Source: an uncultured Bacilli bacterium
Lineage (GTDB): Bacteria > Bacillota_I > Bacilli_A > RF39 > UBA660
Direction of reading: 5' to 3'
NCBI GenBank assembly: GCA_947628365.1
Contig: CANQZN010000066.1
Location: 1 to 6,001, forward strand
DNA length: 6,001 bases
How positions within the stretch are numbered: the stretch's first letter is position 1; each line of letters starts with the position of its first letter. The notes beneath the pieces are model-generated. The model was given only the letters and a program-made list of their open reading frames with translations, did not search any database and was not told the DNA's origin. Shown piece by piece: positions 1-5,794 of this stretch. The position numbers were made by a program, and so were the translations under genes.

Positions 1-104
1 TTTGCACTATAAGCCTCACGGCTTATTTTTCCTGTTTCATAGGATTTTACTCCTCCACAGGCCATATTTCCGACAGTCGCTGCCGTACTTATTTTTTTTA
101 TTAT
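1..104 (-). pseudogene. TnpB C-terminal-like fragment / omega-RNA-like region (partial, continues left of window)
   Basis: The frame is open from 104 to the window edge after a TAA at 107-105. The only ATG (65-63) has no good SD. The peptide ..TAATVGNMACGGVKSYETGKISREAYSA.. resembles TnpB tails, and there is a stable hairpin at 9-26. Confidence 0.35.
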
Positions 105-114
105 TTATTTAATT

Positions 115-201
115 TTAATAATTTTCTTTATAGTAACTTATTATTTCTACTTGTTTTACATTTGGATACATTCTAAATTTGTATGCGTGATTAACTAACA
201 T
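115..201 (-). pseudogene. TnpB N-terminal fragment (28 codons then TAA)
   Basis: ATG 201-199 with a strong SD. Translation is MLVNHAYKFRMYPNVKQVEIISYYKENY, with stop TAA at 117-115. This is far too short for a functional TnpB (normally about 350-450 aa). Confidence 0.5.
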
Positions 202-226
202 AACCATTACCTCCCTAGACAATATA

Positions 227-256
227 ATTATACCATACGAACAAATGTATTTACAA
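227..256 (-). promoter_or_regulatory. Sigma-70/SigA-type promoter driving the TnpB remnant
   Basis: Minus strand reads TTGTAA (256-251), an 18-nt spacer, then TGgTATAAT. The TATAAT is at 232-227 and the TGG at 235-233, giving a perfect -10 with an extended TG. Confidence 0.45.
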
Positions 257-338
257 GTGCTTTTTTACCTTTTTGAACTTTCCTATAAGATAAAAAAATG
301 CCAATCTATTATATACAATTTAGAAACAAAAAAATACT

Positions 339-384
339 TTATCCCTTTTTGTTAATAACTTGGTAGTTTTTAACAAATGGCATT
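339..384 (-). pseudogene. Orphan 3'-end fragment of a hypoxanthine-DNA glycosylase gene (direct-repeat partner of 3566-3620)
   Basis: 339-376 matches 3566-3603 at 35 of 38 nt. After a 9-nt in-frame gap, 377-384 matches 3613-3620 at 7 of 8 nt. The fragment translates as ..IIMPFVKNYQVINKKG*, versus ..CAIPFAKIVENYQVINKKK* at the intact gene end. The stop codon is at the equivalent position. Confidence 0.75.
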
Positions 385-412: not shown

Positions 413-1645
413 TTATTTTCGTTCTAAAATTAATTGTTTGGTTTTTTCAGGAGCTGGAATATCTTTTGTATTAATAAATATATAGTTAATCTTTTTCTGA
501 AAAAAATTGGGATCATAATGCTCAGGTGTTAAATCATTAAATATTATCCATAATACACACGGACAATTATCTGGATATATGCATTCACCATCTGTAAGAA
601 TAATTTTATTATCAGCATTATTAGAAAAGCACTCCACCATTTTTACAAAATCAGTACAACCTCTACCTACAATTTGTAAATTATCAATATCTTTTTCGGT
701 TTTTATTTCATTCCACCCATAAAATTCTATATCAAAAAATCCGACTTTCATATGACTGGCAGTCAAAATATTTTTGCACTCTCTTAAAATTGCTTTTATT
801 TTTGGCATTTGCATAGAAAAACTACTATCAATAATTATTTCACTTTCACTGTCTGACTCAGTAGGTTTTTCTTCTTTTTTTATTATTCCATCCATTTCAA
901 CTTCATAAAATGAGGTTGTTGACTCATCTGGTGAATAAATACTCTTATTTAATAAATTTTTCCAATCAAGAATTGCCTTTGATTTGCCAACATTTACACT
1001 AGGAAATTCTATACCTAAAGAAGTTTTAATTGCATTAGCATCATATTTAAGTTGTTCTTGATAATTATCCAATATTTTACTTCTTATTTTACTATTTTCA
1101 TTCATTAATTCTTCTAAATCCGTAGAATTTATTTTACTATTTTCATCCATTAGTTCTTCTAAATCTTTAGAATATATTTTATTTATCCATGTTTCTATTT
1201 CACTTATTCCCATATGATAAGTATTGCTATTCATCCATTCTTTAATTTGTTGTAAATACGGCAAATATTTCATATATAATTCCTCTACAGAATAATCTAA
1301 CGCATCTGGAATATATATTACGCCAGAAGGCATAGTTAAGCCATCTCTAACTAATAATTGATTAATAATTGCATCTTCTACAAAGTTTAATAAATCTTTA
1401 TCTTTTCCAATATTTCTTGAAAGATGATTTAACACTATATGAAATATCTCATGTGCTATTATAAACTCTTGTTCTGCATCAGTAAAATAATCTATAAAAT
1501 CTTGCTTATAGAAAATACATTCTCCGTTTGTATATGCGGGAGCAGGTACTAAATCACTACAAAGGCAAAATTGTAAATTAACAATTATATTACCAAATAA
1601 AGGATATCTTATCAAAAGTTTTTTTATAATATTATTTATTTCCAT
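413..1645 (-). CDS. HExxH metallopeptidase (DUF2201_N-like) fused to a vWA/MIDAS domain (DUF2201-like); partner of the upstream AAA+ ATPase
   Basis: 410-aa ORF. The ATG at 1645 overlaps the upstream gene's stop by 14 nt (ATGGAAATAAATAA), with AAAGG about 10 nt upstream. Zincin motif HEIFHIVLNH (H65 E66 H69 H74) is at nt 1424-1453. A Glu/Lys/Asn-rich linker carries a 15-aa tandem duplication. The C-terminal domain has MIDAS DSSFS (D273xSxS, nt 815-829), GRGCTDF and ILTDG, as I recall for the DUF2201 VWA-like domain. Confidence 0.8.
   Translation of the reverse strand: MEINNIIKKLLIRYPLFGNIIVNLQFCLCSDLVPAPAYTNGECIFYKQDFIDYFTDAEQEFIIAHEIFHIVLNHLSRNIGKDKDLLNFVEDAIINQLLVRDGLTMPSGVIYIPDALDYSVEELYMKYLPYLQQIKEWMNSNTYHMGISEIETWINKIYSKDLEELMDENSKINSTDLEELMNENSKIRSKILDNYQEQLKYDANAIKTSLGIEFPSVNVGKSKAILDWKNLLNKSIYSPDESTTSFYEVEMDGIIKKEEKPTESDSESEIIIDSSFSMQMPKIKAILRECKNILTASHMKVGFFDIEFYGWNEIKTEKDIDNLQIVGRGCTDFVKMVECFSNNADNKIILTDGECIYPDNCPCVLWIIFNDLTPEHYDPNFFQKKINYIFINTKDIPAPEKTKQLILERK
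1084..1175 (-). repeat. In-frame 45-bp tandem duplication (2 copies plus the start of a third) inside the peptidase-vWA linker
   Basis: 1086-1130 versus 1131-1175 is 40 of 45 nt identical. The units encode KDLEELMDENSKINS / TDLEELMNENSKIRS. Confidence 0.9.
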
Positions 1646-3473
1646 TTGGCACTAACCTTTTAACTAACGGACTATCATCGTTATTATATATTTTCATTAT
1701 TCTTTGTTCATTACCTTTAGACCATTCATAATCAAAAACTGCCAAAAATTCTTTTCCTAATCCACTAACAAACTCTCTAACCACATCAACATTATCATCA
1801 TCCACTGTACTCAAACATAAAGTCGTGTACCATCTAATAGATGGATTAAAAGGAATATTATCAGATGTACATTTACCACTTAAAACATCTTCAACAGTAA
1901 CTAAATTCATTTGTGAAAATTTTATAAAGTCTTTTGTTATTTCCTCCCCAACAAAAGCACGAAGAACATTTGGATTATTGCATTGATATAATGCTCGAGA
2001 AGCTAATGCCCATTTTCTAGGATCGGCATTTGGAGTTTCACCATTATAAGGAGTTCTTAAAACTTTATCTCCATTAACTCTAATATAATCTACAATAGCT
2101 GGATAAATTGTATCCCTTTCCTCAATTTTTTTATAAGTTAAAGTTCTTCCTTCTTTTTTTCTATTTGAAGCCCATTTTATCCATTCTTCAGAGTCGGTAT
2201 CAATATAAACATGAGCAAATCTTCCAAATAATGGTGCACTCATAGCATTTGCAGATCTTGACTCACTCGCTTCATTTCCTGCCGCACAAACTACAGCATT
2301 TTCAGGCAAATGTAATCTAAAACCACTATTAGTTAAAGTTTTATTAAGTGTTACTTCAAATGCTACTTTTTGAATATCATTTTTTGCATTTGTTAATTCT
2401 TCTAAAAATAGAATATGTAATAACTCTGGATGCTCTTCACATTTTTTGCACAAACTTTTATACCAATATGGCTCGTATAGGAAAAGTTCTTTAGAATTAA
2501 AATCTTTTGCAACAATACCTGTAAACCCATCTGAACTAGTACATCCAAAATCAACTAATTCTAAATTTTTATCTAATGCTATCATTCTTTCGGTTTTTCC
2601 AGCACCTGTCTTGCCATGCAGAAATACTGCTATATTACTATTAATACAAATCTCAACAATTTCTTCTTCAGTTAAATCAGAAAAATCAAATCCATATCTA
2701 TTATAATTTACTATTTCTTCTTGAAACTCAACTGAAGGTACCTTATGCTCCAACTCATCATTAATACTTTTTAAAAAATTCCCATTTAAATATCTATTTA
2801 AATCACTATTTTCAAATTCTCTTCCTTGACTATCAAAGTCTGATACCATCAAAACCATAGAAGAGTAAATTAATTGAGCATCTTCATCGACTTGAAAAGG
2901 AATTTTATCAATTTTCATATAAACAATTTTATCTTTTTCAGTTAATGTACCATCTATTAAAACACATTGTGAAGTTTTTTGACTCTTTTTAATAAATCTA
3001 ATACCAAACACTTCATATTCATCATATAAAGTATTATTTATATCATGAACTCTTCCTGTTTTTAAAATCAATTTACTTTTAGTTTTAAATAGTTCGTCAA
3101 TTGTTTTTCCAAACATACCACCAATTGCAAATAAAGGGTATTCACATACTAAATTATCTATTTCATTTAATTTAAAATCTTCAATATCATTAAAATGTAT
3201 CGCTATTCTTACGCCAACTGGGCTTTTACCAGAATATGATGAAGATAAATTACCATTTTTATCAACATACTTCATAGCATTCTTCTTTTTATCACTTGAT
3301 GGTTTCCCATTGTACCAGTAAGCGCCAAAACCATTTGATGGATTATATTCAATTCCCATAACCCTAGCTAAATCAGAGCAATAGCACTCAAGTCCAATTT
3401 GTTTAAGAGTAGGAATCATATCAAGATTTTTTATATGATTTTCTTTTAATATACCGACTTTTTTTATCTTCAT
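1632..3473 (-). CDS. AAA_5-type (MoxR/McrB-clade) P-loop ATPase with a ~285-aa non-ATPase N-terminal module (DUF6273-like?) and a helical C-terminal region
   Basis: The ORF track opens at a TTG (3491), but the ATG at 3473 has GGGGGA (3485-3480) 6 nt upstream, so I call 613 aa. Walker A GKTGAGKT is at nt 2592-2615. A Walker B-like ILFLEE is at nt 2397-2414. VVCAAGNEASESRS is a sensor-1 region resembling both MoxR ..TQNP.. and McrB ..MNTADRS. LFGRF sits where MoxR has LDRF. The N-terminal part has no NTPase motifs and contains GFGAYWY and ENSDLNRYLNGNFLKSI. Confidence 0.8.
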   Translation of the reverse strand: MKIKKVGILKENHIKNLDMIPTLKQIGLECYCSDLARVMGIEYNPSNGFGAYWYNGKPSSDKKKNAMKYVDKNGNLSSSYSGKSPVGVRIAIHFNDIEDFKLNEIDNLVCEYPLFAIGGMFGKTIDELFKTKSKLILKTGRVHDINNTLYDEYEVFGIRFIKKSQKTSQCVLIDGTLTEKDKIVYMKIDKIPFQVDEDAQLIYSSMVLMVSDFDSQGREFENSDLNRYLNGNFLKSINDELEHKVPSVEFQEEIVNYNRYGFDFSDLTEEEIVEICINSNIAVFLHGKTGAGKTERMIALDKNLELVDFGCTSSDGFTGIVAKDFNSKELFLYEPYWYKSLCKKCEEHPELLHILFLEELTNAKNDIQKVAFEVTLNKTLTNSGFRLHLPENAVVCAAGNEASESRSANAMSAPLFGRFAHVYIDTDSEEWIKWASNRKKEGRTLTYKKIEERDTIYPAIVDYIRVNGDKVLRTPYNGETPNADPRKWALASRALYQCNNPNVLRAFVGEEITKDFIKFSQMNLVTVEDVLSGKCTSDNIPFNPSIRWYTTLCLSTVDDDNVDVVREFVSGLGKEFLAVFDYEWSKGNEQRIMKIYNNDDSPLVKRLVPNGNK

Positions 3474-3497
3474 TATAAGTCCCCCTAACAAAATATT

Positions 3498-3526
3498 AAT
3501 ATACCATAAATAGTCTTTTTTTACAA
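3498..3526 (-). promoter_or_regulatory. Sigma-70/SigA-type promoter of the ATPase/vWA cassette
   Basis: Minus strand reads TTGTAA (3526-3521), a 17-nt spacer, then TGgTATATT. The TATATT is at 3503-3498 and the TGG at 3506-3504. It lies about 25 nt upstream of the ATG at 3473. Confidence 0.5.
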
Positions 3527-3565
3527 TTACAAACTATATTCTAAAAACTCTCAACTTTAGATATT

Positions 3566-4054
3566 TTATTTCTTTTTGTTAATAACTTGGTAGTTTTCAA
3601 CAATTTTAGCAAATGGTATTGCACAATTAGCGGGTGATGGTGAGTATAAACAAGTTGCCTCTATATGTGTTTTTGGTAAAATATACTTATTATATAATTC
3701 ATGAGCTTTCTTACCAGTTGTAAATATATATTTTATATTAGTTTCTTTTATTAATTTATTTATATTATTAGGTATCACTTTAGTTATAGATGAATCGCTA
3801 GATCCTTTAATATTACACGATTTAATAACATCCCATAAAGCAATATGATTATTTTTTAAAAATTCTTTTTTAGAAGAAATATCATCACCAATTGTAGTAT
3901 TAAAAACACTTTCTAATATTTTCCAAAATCTATTTTGTTTATGCATATAATAGAAACCTAATTCTCGTGATTTTACCGAAGGAAAAGAACCAAGTATTAA
4001 GATTTCACTATCTTGTTCATAAAATGGTGGAAAAGAATGATTAACTCTTGCCAT
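3566..4054 (-). CDS. UDG-superfamily family-6 glycosylase (hypoxanthine-DNA / DNA-deoxyinosine glycosylase)
   Basis: 162-aa ORF. The N-terminal HSFPPFYEQDSEILILGSFPSVKSRELGFYYMHKQNRFWKIL matches the pattern I recall for bacterial deoxyinosine glycosylases (..iLiLGsFPS..S....YY.h..NrFW..l). The start is 2 nt after the HAD gene stop, indicating translational coupling. Confidence 0.75.
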   Translation of the reverse strand: MARVNHSFPPFYEQDSEILILGSFPSVKSRELGFYYMHKQNRFWKILESVFNTTIGDDISSKKEFLKNNHIALWDVIKSCNIKGSSDSSITKVIPNNINKLIKETNIKYIFTTGKKAHELYNKYILPKTHIEATCLYSPSPANCAIPFAKIVENYQVINKKK

Positions 4055-4056
4055 AA

Positions 4057-4590
4057 CTATTTTTCTCTTTTTAATTCATAATCTTTATCTAATGTTTTAT
4101 TAAATATCTGTTTAGCATGTTCATAATCAGGAATAGAAATACCTACATAATAATTAATCTTAACAAAATGATCTTGTTGATTAGGTAACATCCTTTCTTC
4201 ATCATCTAATATAACATAATTTTCTACCTCAAGGTGATTATCTAAATATTCTTGAATTTCTTCTCCTCTTGTTAATCTAAAATCATCATGAGGTGTTACA
4301 TCAATTACTTCAATACTTTCTAATAAACCCGAATTAACGAGTAATTCTTTTAAATATGGAATACCTAGAACTTTCCAAGTAGATGAAATAACAATTTTTG
4401 CATTGCATTCCATACATAATTTATTAAGTAACATTATTGCTTGACGATTATATAATTTTTTGTCTGTTGGAAAAGCAAGTCCATAATAAAATCCATCTTT
4501 CTTTGTTTTGCCATGAATTAAATCAAATGGCTCTGTATCTAAAAGAGGCGTATTAACAACACCATCAATATCTAAAAAAACTATATTCAT
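4057..4590 (-). CDS. Small stand-alone HAD-superfamily phosphatase (HAD_SAK_2-like)
   Basis: 177-aa ORF with AGGAGA 10 nt upstream of the ATG. HAD motif I is FLDIDGVVN (DxD). Motif II is VISSTWK. The acidic motif is YVILDDEE. RGEEIQEYL and overall size match the small 'HAD domain-containing protein' family as I remember it. Confidence 0.7.
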   Translation of the reverse strand: MNIVFLDIDGVVNTPLLDTEPFDLIHGKTKKDGFYYGLAFPTDKKLYNRQAIMLLNKLCMECNAKIVISSTWKVLGIPYLKELLVNSGLLESIEVIDVTPHDDFRLTRGEEIQEYLDNHLEVENYVILDDEERMLPNQQDHFVKINYYVGISIPDYEHAKQIFNKTLDKDYELKREK

Positions 4591-4934: not shown

Positions 4935-5354
4935 CTAACGTTTACTAAATTGTGGAGCACGACGTGCTTTCTTCAAACCATATTTCTTACGTTCTTTAAC
5001 TCTTGGATCTCTTGTAATTAATCCTTCAGCTTTTAAAATATGTCTATAACTATCTTCTCTAGTTTGATCAGTATTAGCATCAAATTTTAATAATGCTCTA
5101 GCAATAGCTAATCTAATAGCACCAGCTTGACCATTATATCCACCACCATTAACTTTAACTTCGATATCAAATCTATTTTCATTATCAGTAGCTACTAATG
5201 GTTGTTTTAAATCCATAACTAATGTTGCAGATGGCATATATTCATCAACATTAACACCATTAACAACGATATTGCCTGTACCACCAACAAGTTTAACTTG
5301 TGCAACTGCTTGTTTTCTTCTTCCTGTTGCAGACCAAATTTGTTTATTTGCCAT
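4935..5354 (-). CDS. rpsI: 30S ribosomal protein S9
   Basis: 139-aa ORF containing [29 protein letters not shown] and the C-terminal [12 protein letters not shown] typical of S9. AGGAGG lies just upstream, and the gene follows rplM as in the conserved operon. Confidence 0.95.
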
Positions 5355-5362
5355 ATATCCTC

Positions 5363-5794
5363 CTAATCAATTTCTATAGCTACAGGTTTTTGAGCTTCAT
5401 GTTTATGATTTTCATCTTTATAAACAAATAACTTTTTACCCATTGCTCTTCCTAAACTATTATGTGGCATCATACCTTTAACTGCTCTTTCAAGCATTTC
5501 TTCAGGATAACTTTCAATCATAACTTTAGCAGTTCTCTCTCTAAGTCCTCCTGGATAACCTGAGTGATTATAATACTTTTTATCAGTTAATTTTTTACCA
5601 CTTAATGTTACTTTAGAAGCGTTAATAATAATTACATAATCGCCACAATCAACATAAGGTGTATAAGTTGGTTTATGTTTTCCTCTTAATATATTAGCGG
5701 CTTTTGTTGCAACTCTTCCTAATGGTTTACCAGCTGCATCAATAACATACCAATTTCTTTCAACTGTTTCTTTTTTTTGCATAAATGATTTCAT
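5363..5794 (-). CDS. rplM: 50S ribosomal protein L13
   Basis: 143-aa ORF containing [48 protein letters not shown] and [10 protein letters not shown], classic L13 blocks. GGAAGGAAA is 8 nt upstream of the ATG. Confidence 0.95.

Follow-up and report, generated by a model that had tools for sequence, protein, structure and literature searches.

The first 6,001 nucleotides (nt) of contig CANQZN010000066.1, read on the forward strand and taken from the GenBank assembly GCA_947628365.1 of an uncultured Bacilli bacterium, are hereafter referred to as the window. They carry a cassette of two overlapping genes, the first (gene 1) predicted to encode a MoxR-class AAA+ ATPase with an additional N-terminal domain and the second (gene 2) a metallopeptidase joined by a charged linker to a von Willebrand factor A (vWA) domain. 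A preliminary description of this DNA, made by reading the sequence, had put the pair forward as a candidate conflict or defence system. The domain content of the two proteins, the mobility of the cassette and its kinship with phage gene pairs and with known MoxR-vWA systems are analysed here, and its probable role is weighed against the alternatives.

Organisation of the cassette

The G+C content of the 6-kb window is ~27% and all of its genes lie on the minus strand (Table 1). Two minus-strand open reading frames (ORFs) with a 14-nt overlap had been described, the stop codon of the first lying inside the second, and the ORF listing bears this out. The overlap is consistent with translational coupling, and an overlap of similar kind between the ATPase and peptidase genes is seen again in relatives from subfamily A (below). 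The cassette had been delimited at positions 413-3526; both genes do lie there, but the upper end of that span covers the promoter-like site and the coding sequence ends at 3473. The ORF listing puts the start of gene 1 at a TTG at 3491. The ATG at 3473-3471 is preferred, since AGGGGG stands before it at 3486-3481 and since independent gene calls on other contigs likewise give a product of 613 amino acids (aa).

The promoter proposed earlier for the pair is present as a motif and falls within a stretch of ~50 nt upstream of gene 1 that is conserved along with the cassette in relatives. However, shuffling this AT-rich sequence yields promoter-like sites at least as often (44.8 expected, against 41 found in the window), so that the motif alone carries little weight. 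The description of the pair as a repeat-bracketed insertion holds: a 43-nt direct repeat, 91% identical between its copies (alignment score 31, where shuffled controls reach no more than 13), encloses an insert of 3.2 kb. No gene for a client enzyme adjoins the pair, as had been stated; neither the genes of the window nor their profile matches show one.

Table 1. Positions of the genes, domains, motifs and repeats discussed in the text, in window coordinates
Feature	Position	Strand	Remarks
rplM	5363-5794	minus	
rpsI	4935-5354	minus	
HAD_SAK_2 phosphatase-like gene	4057-4590	minus	
Deoxyinosine DNA glycosylase gene	3566-4054	minus	TIGR04274, 7e-38
Direct repeat, copy 1	3561-3603		Last 9 codons of the glycosylase gene, its stop and 5 nt
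Promoter-like site	3498-3526	minus	TTGTAA (3526-3521), 17-nt spacer, extended -10 TGgTATATT (3506-3498)
Ribosome-binding site AGGGGG	3481-3486	minus	7 nt before ATG 3473; sequence reading
Gene 1: N-terminal domain, MoxR-class AAA+ ATPase (predicted), helical C-terminal region	1632-3473	minus	613 aa
N-terminal domain, residues 1-262	2688-3473	minus	Mostly beta, lineage-specific
Loop equivalent to the variable region of a diversity-generating retroelement (DGR), residues ~56-93	3195-3308	minus	...AMKYVDKNGNLSSSYSGKSPVGVRIAI
AAA+ core, residues ~265-430	2184-2681	minus	Invariant columns, AAA_5 in relatives, Foldseek
Walker A, GKTGAGKT	2592-2615	minus	
Walker B, ILFLEE	2397-2414	minus	
Overlap of gene 1 stop and gene 2 start	1632-1645	minus	14 nt; stop 1632-1634 within gene 2
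Gene 2: metallopeptidase, linker and vWA protein	413-1645	minus	410 aa
DUF2201_N Zn-metallopeptidase domain, residues 7-174	1124-1627	minus	Pfam 9.6e-17, above gathering score
HEIFHIVLNH	1424-1453	minus	
Charged low-confidence linker, residues ~145-235	941-1213	minus	Predicted local distance difference test (pLDDT) <50 at residues 156-180 and 203-224
vWA domain with complete metal ion-dependent adhesion site (MIDAS), residues ~270-392	470-838	minus	Pfam DUF2201 2.4e-7, above gathering score
MIDAS motifs DSSFS and TDG	815-829; 587-595	minus	
Direct repeat, copy 2	334-376		37 nt past the stop codon of gene 2
Truncated TnpB-like ORF, 28 aa, MLVNHAYKFRMYPNVKQVEIISYYKENY*	115-201	minus	Begins MLVNHAYKFRMYPNVKQ; recognised by eye

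Domain organisation of the two proteins

The ATPase motifs listed in the preliminary description, together with the HEIFHIVLNH motif, the charged linker and the MIDAS of the second protein, are all in place, and key residues are invariant throughout the 60 homologues of the ATPase and the 52 homologues of the gene 2 product that were aligned. In the former these are G287, G292 and K293 of Walker A, E359 of Walker B, N400 of sensor-1, R418 and R486; in the latter, H65-E66-x-x-H69, H74, R77 and D91 of the peptidase, and D273-S275-S277 and T351-D352-G353 of the MIDAS.

The ATPase core had earlier been assigned to the AAA_5 family. The window protein itself scores below the Pfam gathering cut-off (E=0.0017; 18.8 bits against 22 bits), but 41 of the 60 family members match AAA_5, the best at 6e-8, and an AAA+ fold is modelled by AlphaFold2 (pLDDT 86.9). 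The bpMoxR profile gives a weak match, in 2/60 members. Foldseek searches with the model returned MCM subunits, NorQ of the NorQD complex, phage N4 gp24-like MoxR-type ATPases and ORF618 of the Acidianus two-tailed virus (ATV), while the ATPase profile matched nothing among the PDB sequences. The models support a fold of the MoxR/MCM clade and the classification of the gene 1 product as a MoxR-class AAA+ ATPase of the helix-2-insert/pre-sensor clade. A reading of the sequence reveals neither signal peptide nor membrane segment in this protein.

A Pfam scan of the N-terminal domain at E<=10 returned solely sub-threshold matches to DUF6273 and DUF4478; that to DUF6273 (0.0015-0.005) is confined to residues 218-250 and is found in 9 of the 60 family members (best 1.5e-4). 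A phmmer search with residues 1-262 against 1.84 billion representative proteins gave 16 matches, all to the family itself or uninformative, and Foldseek searches against PDB and viral models, whose output is dominated by AAA+ matches, yielded no identity for the domain. The long alignments with MCM have a template modelling (TM) score of ~0.25 and a root mean square deviation of ~35 Å, and are therefore not taken to indicate an MCM-like N-terminal domain or a helicase. Residues ~56-93 form the least conserved block of the ATPase in both of the subfamilies defined below.

In the gene 2 product, the DUF2201_N domain is related to the minigluzincin/M48 group as judged from sequence profiles, the profile of the 52 homologues matching the minigluzincin selecase MJ1213 at 4e-5 and BepA/M48 weakly. 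These matches cover the HExxH helix and the core around it. Unlike the gene 2 product, selecase, BepA and HtpX are stand-alone, membrane or periplasmic peptidases that have neither a fused vWA domain nor an AAA+ ATPase as partner. For the C-terminal half, AlphaFold2 modelling followed by Foldseek gave integrin I domains and the vWA domain of Rpn10. The linker contains an in-frame tandem duplication of 2 x 45 nt (15 aa, SKDLEELMDENSKIN/STDLEELMNENSKIR) at 1084-1173, which partly accounts for the length of 410 aa here against ~396 in close relatives.

Distribution and mobility of the gene pair

Relatives occur in at least 264 species-representative genomes, nearly all of them metagenome-assembled genomes (MAGs) of uncultured gut 'Bacilli', 'Tenericutes' or 'Firmicutes', with Coprobacillus sp. 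CAG:605 among the hosts; we take these hosts to resemble the RF39-type lineage. Some MAGs with a low-GC, Bacilli-type locus bear the titles 'uncultured Muribaculaceae', 'Oscillospiraceae' or 'Bacteroidaceae', probably owing to mis-binning or contig mislabelling. A survey of 79 loci (designated below by L numbers), in which ORF calling, hidden Markov models and clustering were combined, resolves two subfamilies. Subfamily A is the group of the window, with more than 50% identity to the window protein, and its loci always consist of the bare overlapping pair; subfamily B is described in the next section. The ATPase and the peptidase-vWA genes always occur together at the loci inspected, and the two subfamilies are found side by side in one MAG (L017 and L073).

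Homologous pairs that were core genes at a fixed locus beside a conserved client enzyme would, according to the preliminary description, have told against its proposal; the relatives show otherwise. The surroundings of the copies with 87, 82, 78 and 76% identity are unrelated to one another: beside a helix-turn-helix (HTH) gene and a tyrosine integrase (L100), between murB/POTRA and a metallophosphatase (L101), between a glyoxalase and RibD_C (L102), and between a Mob_Pre relaxase and a serine recombinase (L009), respectively. Two further members of subfamily A are situated between an SDR gene and a ribosomal operon (L011) and between gyrB and xseA on a complete-looking contig of 0.62 Mb (L013). 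Across the 79 loci no conserved neighbour or client gene was found. In the relatives, DNA similar to the window extends from ~50 nt upstream of the ATG to a point ~10 nt or less from the stop codon of gene 2; since similarity is confined to this stretch, the mobile unit comprises the two genes and the promoter-proximal DNA. Thus, the cassette is horizontally mobile and is not a core gene beside a client.

Bracketing repeats were sought at 20 other subfamily A loci and found only at L032, so that no general signature of transposition was seen. The L032 cassette, a second and independent insertion, is bracketed by a 43-nt direct repeat of unrelated sequence (~5732-5774 and ~8864-8906; score 28 against a control maximum of 10), and the recurrence of a 43-nt duplication at another site is a hint that the mode of insertion is a defined one. 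A search for an empty insertion site gave none, all six of the six contigs with an identical glycosylase also carrying the cassette. At L009:7300-17400 and L029:3300-11000 the pair is carried by apparent small integrative mobilisable elements, which encode HTH regulators, a serine recombinase and a relaxase (Mob_Pre) and have small accessory ORFs in common (clusters c19 and c33). A search of plasmids gave distant matches to the peptidase domain only.

A retroelement-targeted N-terminal domain in subfamily B

A sensor role for the N-terminal domain had been suggested in the preliminary description, and it gains strong independent support from subfamily B, in which this domain is the target of a DGR. 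The ATPases of subfamily B are ~32% identical to the window protein over alignments spanning 93-97% of it. Their operon has the order [bAvd-RT]-ATPase-c2-peptidase/vWA, where RT is a reverse transcriptase; the ATPase (580-940 aa) is present in 1-3 copies, and the peptidase-vWA gene is longer than in the window. A bAvd-like gene and an RT gene (RVT_1, 9e-19) are located immediately upstream in 16 of the 40 subfamily B loci with enough upstream sequence.

Pairs of template (TR) and variable (VR) repeats, 77-103 nt long, were identified in 13/21 RT-bearing loci, the TR being intergenic and upstream of the RT gene and the VR lying within the N-terminal domain of the ATPase at about residues 70-105. 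Mismatches between TR and VR fall at TR adenines in 148 of 162 cases (binomial 2e-57 at a TR adenine fraction of 0.32; the 13 pairs were preselected for an adenine bias of at least 70%), and two further loci show a milder adenine bias. The 3' end of the VR carries a GC-rich GGNGCNCGCCCAG motif, conspicuous against the AT-rich genomes. L080 and L081, from two MAGs, share 98.9% identity across 4.8 kb and the same TR but differ in their VRs at 12/100 positions, 13 times the background, and a third relative, L091, has yet another VR. Judged from the sequences, these features together are the signature of active mutagenic retrohoming.

The N-terminal domains of the window ATPase and of the DGR-targeted ATPases are colinear (pairwise BLASTP E=0.002 over residues 8-237; 6e-6), and the subfamily B VR aligns to window residues 56/66-93 (AMKYVDKNGNLSSSYSGKSPVGVRIAI). 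The GC-rich motif is carried by 25/64 and a G-x-R-P motif by 34/64 of the subfamily B genes, while neither occurs in the 20 genes of subfamily A, and no RT or bAvd gene stands beside the pair at the mapped subfamily A loci.

Three further features of the subfamily B loci were recorded. A 133-aa protein, c2, is encoded between the ATPase and the peptidase-vWA genes in 47/57 loci (e.g. L049:11890-12297 and L074:11529-11930) and is absent from the subfamily of the window. It resembles the part of a P-loop/AAA+ core from Walker B to sensor-1, without Walker A (KAP_NTPase weakly, 0.002), and may be a third component in the form of an inactive NTPase. Two to three tandem full-length ATPase paralogues accompany one c2 and one peptidase-vWA gene at L046, L057, L069, L050, L056, L062, L074 and L084; they reach ~940 aa in L069 and L078 and look like an array of alternative sensors. 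Clusters of secreted proteins lie near several subfamily B loci (L046:14000-18700, L061, L089 and L041). They show sub-threshold DUF6273 matches (2.8e-4) and end with a motif resembling G-I-R-P-A-L, and they could be either further DGR targets or classic variable proteins encoded by these genomes; an hhalign comparison of the window N-terminal domain with neighbouring secreted DUF6273 proteins was not significant (E=0.09).

Kinship with a gene pair of lytic phages

Both proteins of the window match abundant phage families, the ATPase matching phrog_1297 (E=4.1e-39; residues 277-594, aligned to positions 16-332 of a 356-position profile) and the peptidase-vWA protein phrog_1314 (2.3e-38; residues 9-381), and tblastn searches returned 406 phage records for the former and 65 for the latter. 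On the strength of these two profile matches, the window pair is assigned to the phage-type MoxR/DUF2201 pair. The carriers belong to the N4-like Schitoviridae, the rV5-like Vequintavirinae and the PA5oct-like jumbo phages. In the N4-like phage KP8 the two genes are adjacent and lie among the early/middle genes, between the RNAP2 genes and those for dCTP deaminase, ThyX and rIIA; they have the same order and strand, with the ATPase first, in the window, in KP8 and in all bacterial loci examined. The preliminary description had treated the cassette as uncharacterised, but the pair had already been reported from group 2.2 jumbo phages, with a predicted role as a chaperone/protease in virion assembly or processing (Iyer et al. 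2021, PMC7824862).

The window and phage pairs share the peptidase-linker-vWA layout and an AAA+ core followed by a helical C-terminal region, at an identity of only 23-27%. However, the phage ATPases are ~350-430 aa long and lack the ~260-aa N-terminal domain; since their alignments begin only at window residue ~258-277, the domain is considered a bacterial addition. The window pair differs further in being chromosomal in a bacterium, stand-alone and mobile, and the function of the phage pair is itself a prediction. Proteins of the phrog_1314 type are labelled 'HNH endonuclease' in PHROGs, and as that or 'homing endonuclease' in many phage records (e.g. NC_071039.1, NC_049436.1 and NC_020862.2); these sequences carry HExxH and vWA/MIDAS and no HNH motif, and the label is an annotation problem that looks like a propagated mis-annotation.

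This kinship raises the question of whether the bacterial pair is a chaperone and maturation-protease module of phage type with no defence role, assembling or processing a structure for a mobile element or a cryptic prophage. Precedents are at hand, such a role having been proposed in jumbo phages, with a virion-assembly prediction in the literature, and shown for the MoxR-vWA pair of ATV; the strong matches to both phage families, the number of phage records, the N4 gp24-like ATPases and ATV ORF618 among the viral models found by Foldseek, and the integrases or relaxases adjoining some copies are all in keeping with it. It is nevertheless thought unlikely. No phage structural genes are present in the window or in seven gene-called loci, and no capsid or tail families are among the 25 most frequent Pfam families listed for 104 neighbours at 16 loci; the mobile unit is just two genes; the KP8 pair itself lies among early/middle genes of nucleotide metabolism, outside the structural module; and the gain by the bacterial ATPases of a ~260-aa domain that is DGR-hypermutated is hard to square with a fixed assembly client.

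The conservation of the pair in the early/middle regions of lytic phages, its carriage on apparent integrative mobilisable elements and a DGR diversification that fits either side of an arms race could also be read in terms of offence or counter-defence, the module degrading or remodelling proteins of host immunity or of competitors on behalf of a carrier element or of itself, with the N-terminal domain picking the victim; its task would then be the one that the pair performs for lytic phages. Many copies, however, have only housekeeping genes on either side and no further genes of an element in their vicinity; the presence in at least 264 species-representative genomes with invariant catalytic residues suggests a benefit to the host; and two subfamilies coexist in one MAG (L017 and L073). 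A counter-defence role is therefore held to be quite unlikely.

Comparison with known MoxR-vWA systems

A MoxR or helix-2-insert AAA+ gene adjoining a MIDAS vWA gene is likewise found in RavA-ViaA, CbbQ-CbbO, NorQ-NorD, CoxD-CoxE and ATV p618/p892, and the predicted model of the window ATPase is structurally similar to NorQ and to ATV ORF618. In contrast to the characterised chaperone pairs, the window cassette has no client gene, an extra N-terminal domain on the ATPase, an active-looking peptidase on the vWA protein and a mobile location, and the profile and structure searches place the pair in no characterised chaperone system; a placement of that kind is what the preliminary description had named as counting against its proposal. 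A housekeeping chaperone for a lineage-specific cellular client, comparable with RavA-ViaA, CbbQ-CbbO or NorQ-NorD, would explain the general MoxR and vWA/MIDAS architecture, the Foldseek match to NorQ of NorQD and the wide occurrence within one bacterial clade; it is very improbable in view of the missing conserved neighbour or client, a location that shifts even at 76-87% identity, the active-looking peptidase fused to the vWA domain, the tandem paralogues with a DGR-targeted N-terminal domain, and the position of the window copy between direct repeats beside a putative insertion sequence (IS) remnant. Thus, the absence of structural genes or a client, the unstable location and the addition of a domain that is hypermutated in relatives make both the assembly-chaperone and the housekeeping explanations less likely.

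Ternary vWA-MoxR conflict systems, the parallel drawn in the preliminary description, require a third component (Kaur et al. 2020, PMC7159879), which may be VMAP, iSTAND, FtsH or a vWA-fused beta-propeller. The bracketing repeats enclose just two genes, and no Pfam domains of these kinds were found in the window. In the ternary systems the vWA domain is N-terminal and variable effectors are C-terminal, whereas gene 2 has its peptidase N-terminal and its vWA domain C-terminal. With no third component and a reversed vWA architecture, membership of these systems was rejected and the parallel does not hold.

Closer in logic are the DGR-diversified putative antigen sensors of MoxR-vWA and STAND conflict systems in multicellular bacteria (PMC7159879; Dore et al. 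2024, PMC10907252), which also combine a hypervariable ligand-binding domain with a MoxR ATPase, a vWA domain and a peptidase; subfamily B shares with them bAvd, RT and TR/VR pairs. The differences are several. The variable domain of those systems is a C-type lectin domain at the C-terminus of the vWA or STAND protein, whereas here the VR lies near the N-terminus of the ATPase; VMAP or iSTAND is needed there, whereas the window has two genes only and subfamily B a different third protein of 133 aa; their peptidases are mostly trypsin- or caspase-like, in contrast to the HExxH peptidase that precedes the vWA domain here; their hosts are multicellular cyanobacteria, actinobacteria and Chromatiales, as against MAGs of uncultured gut Bacilli; and the window copy is without any DGR. 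Among 372 DGRs, only 3 had N-terminal VRs, and Midasin-like AAA matches were seen solely in targets from the candidate phyla radiation (CPR) (Wu et al. 2018).

Probable biological role

By a modest balance of probability, the cassette is best explained as a horizontally mobile, self-contained conflict module of two genes in which a sensor, a switch and a protease are combined. Its foundations, all of them computed results, are the domain assignments, the conservation of catalytic, ATPase and MIDAS residues, the mobility of the cassette and the DGR targeting of the homologous loop in relatives. A DGR invests in a loop only where that loop binds something ever-changing, and the homologous loop is part of the ATPase itself. 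Formation of a hexamer, contact between ATPase and vWA domain, activation of the protease and a protective outcome against phages or mobile elements are inferred by analogy with the MoxR-vWA systems (PMC7159879) and the 'DGR-diversified antigen sensor' model (PMC10907252).

Under such a mechanism the ATPase would be cytoplasmic and presumably hexameric, with a ligand-recognition domain at the N-terminus of each subunit. The variable loop of this domain (window residues ~56-93) would bind a foreign protein or another ligand, and binding would gate or direct ATP-driven remodelling by the AAA+ ring. Through a contact with the MIDAS, the ring could then reposition or de-repress the peptidase tethered by its flexible charged linker, after which the peptidase would cleave the captured ligand or a host target. 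Several sensor-ATPases might use one shared peptidase, as the tandem paralogues of subfamily B suggest. The beneficiary would be either the cell, in defence, or the mobile element, in counter-defence.

Several results weigh against a conflict module. Strictly lytic phages harbour the closest relatives by sequence, and there the pair presumably works for the phage and not for a host. Neither protein matched any family of PADLOC-DB v2 at E<=0.1 (0 families), NCBIfam profiles gave nothing useful for either, and the fold of the N-terminal domain is matched by no significant profile. In the survey of neighbourhoods proposed in the preliminary description, the loci vary and some are near an integrase or relaxase. 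Housekeeping genes make up most of the 104 neighbours at 16 subfamily A loci; RhuM, Fic, Bro-N, Mob_Pre and HTH genes appear here and there, and neither a validated defence system nor a defence-island context was seen. Literature searches on DUF2201, on N4-like phages with MoxR and on DGR with RF39 found no functional study.

The remaining adverse points concern the window copy itself. The 6-kb window contains no RT, bAvd or TR, no GC-rich homing-site-like (IMH) motif was found in its DNA, and a search for hypermutation of the window allele showed the gene to be 100% identical in three other samples; a repeat of TR/VR type with adenine-specific mismatches was also sought in the window, and none was found. 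Given the missing retroelement, the missing GC-rich/IMH motif and the identical allele in three samples, the window copy is regarded as a fixed-specificity relative and not as a DGR target.

Neighbouring genes and flanking elements

Upstream of the cassette, the HAD_SAK_2 gene translationally abuts the glycosylase gene directly downstream of rplM-rpsI (3566-4590), an unusual pairing. Its product, which has the 'Swiss Army Knife RNA repair' domain of the haloacid dehalogenase (HAD) superfamily, also matches phrog_1818 (8e-29).

On the other side, the IS remnant mentioned in the preliminary description is upheld only to the extent that a TnpB-like ORF is plausible by eye; a profile match was not obtained for it. 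The ORF at 115-201 is plausibly the N-terminus of TnpB, as read from its sequence, and would then be a remnant of an IS200/IS605-family element outside the bracketed cassette. A hairpin and T-run at 9-26 follow this stub, and stub and hairpin together resemble an internally deleted element of that family (window 1-260). The stub is preceded by a promoter and ribosome-binding site (210-237) that share 75% identity with the gene 1 counterparts (3481-3508). An Rfam scan of the window gave no RNA families.

Significance

The fusion of DUF2201_N with DUF2201 and its MoxR partner are widespread, with hundreds of lytic phages and numerous bacteria as carriers, yet no function established by experiment is known for them. 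Three aspects appear to be undescribed in the literature searched, namely the N-terminal recognition domain of the ATPase, the targeting of this domain by DGRs close to the start of the protein, and the existence of such a system in unicellular gut Bacilli. The DGR-less copy of the window, a compact unit of ~3.2 kb with its own promoter-like site, is directly testable, and its loop (residues ~56-93) offers a handle for specificity swaps with the naturally diversified VRs of subfamily B.

Cytoplasmic 'antigen sensors' diversified by DGRs and associated with MoxR, vWA and peptidase components have hitherto been described as a hallmark of multicellular bacteria. If the conflict-module interpretation is true, the same logic operates in unicellular gut Bacilli known solely from MAGs, with the variable loop fused directly to the ATPase. 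More tentatively, and as a possibility that falls short of being probable, the family may constitute a minimal receptor-protease immune system at work inside the cells of genome-reduced gut bacteria, one in which an antigen-binding loop of the ATPase directs a MIDAS-tethered zinc protease at the proteins of invaders, the loop being rewritten by a retroelement in one branch and germline-fixed in the branch of the window. If so, the proposed tie between DGR-diversified MoxR/vWA sensors and multicellularity would be broken, and the window cassette would be the simplest portable version of such a system, with two genes and a fixed specificity.

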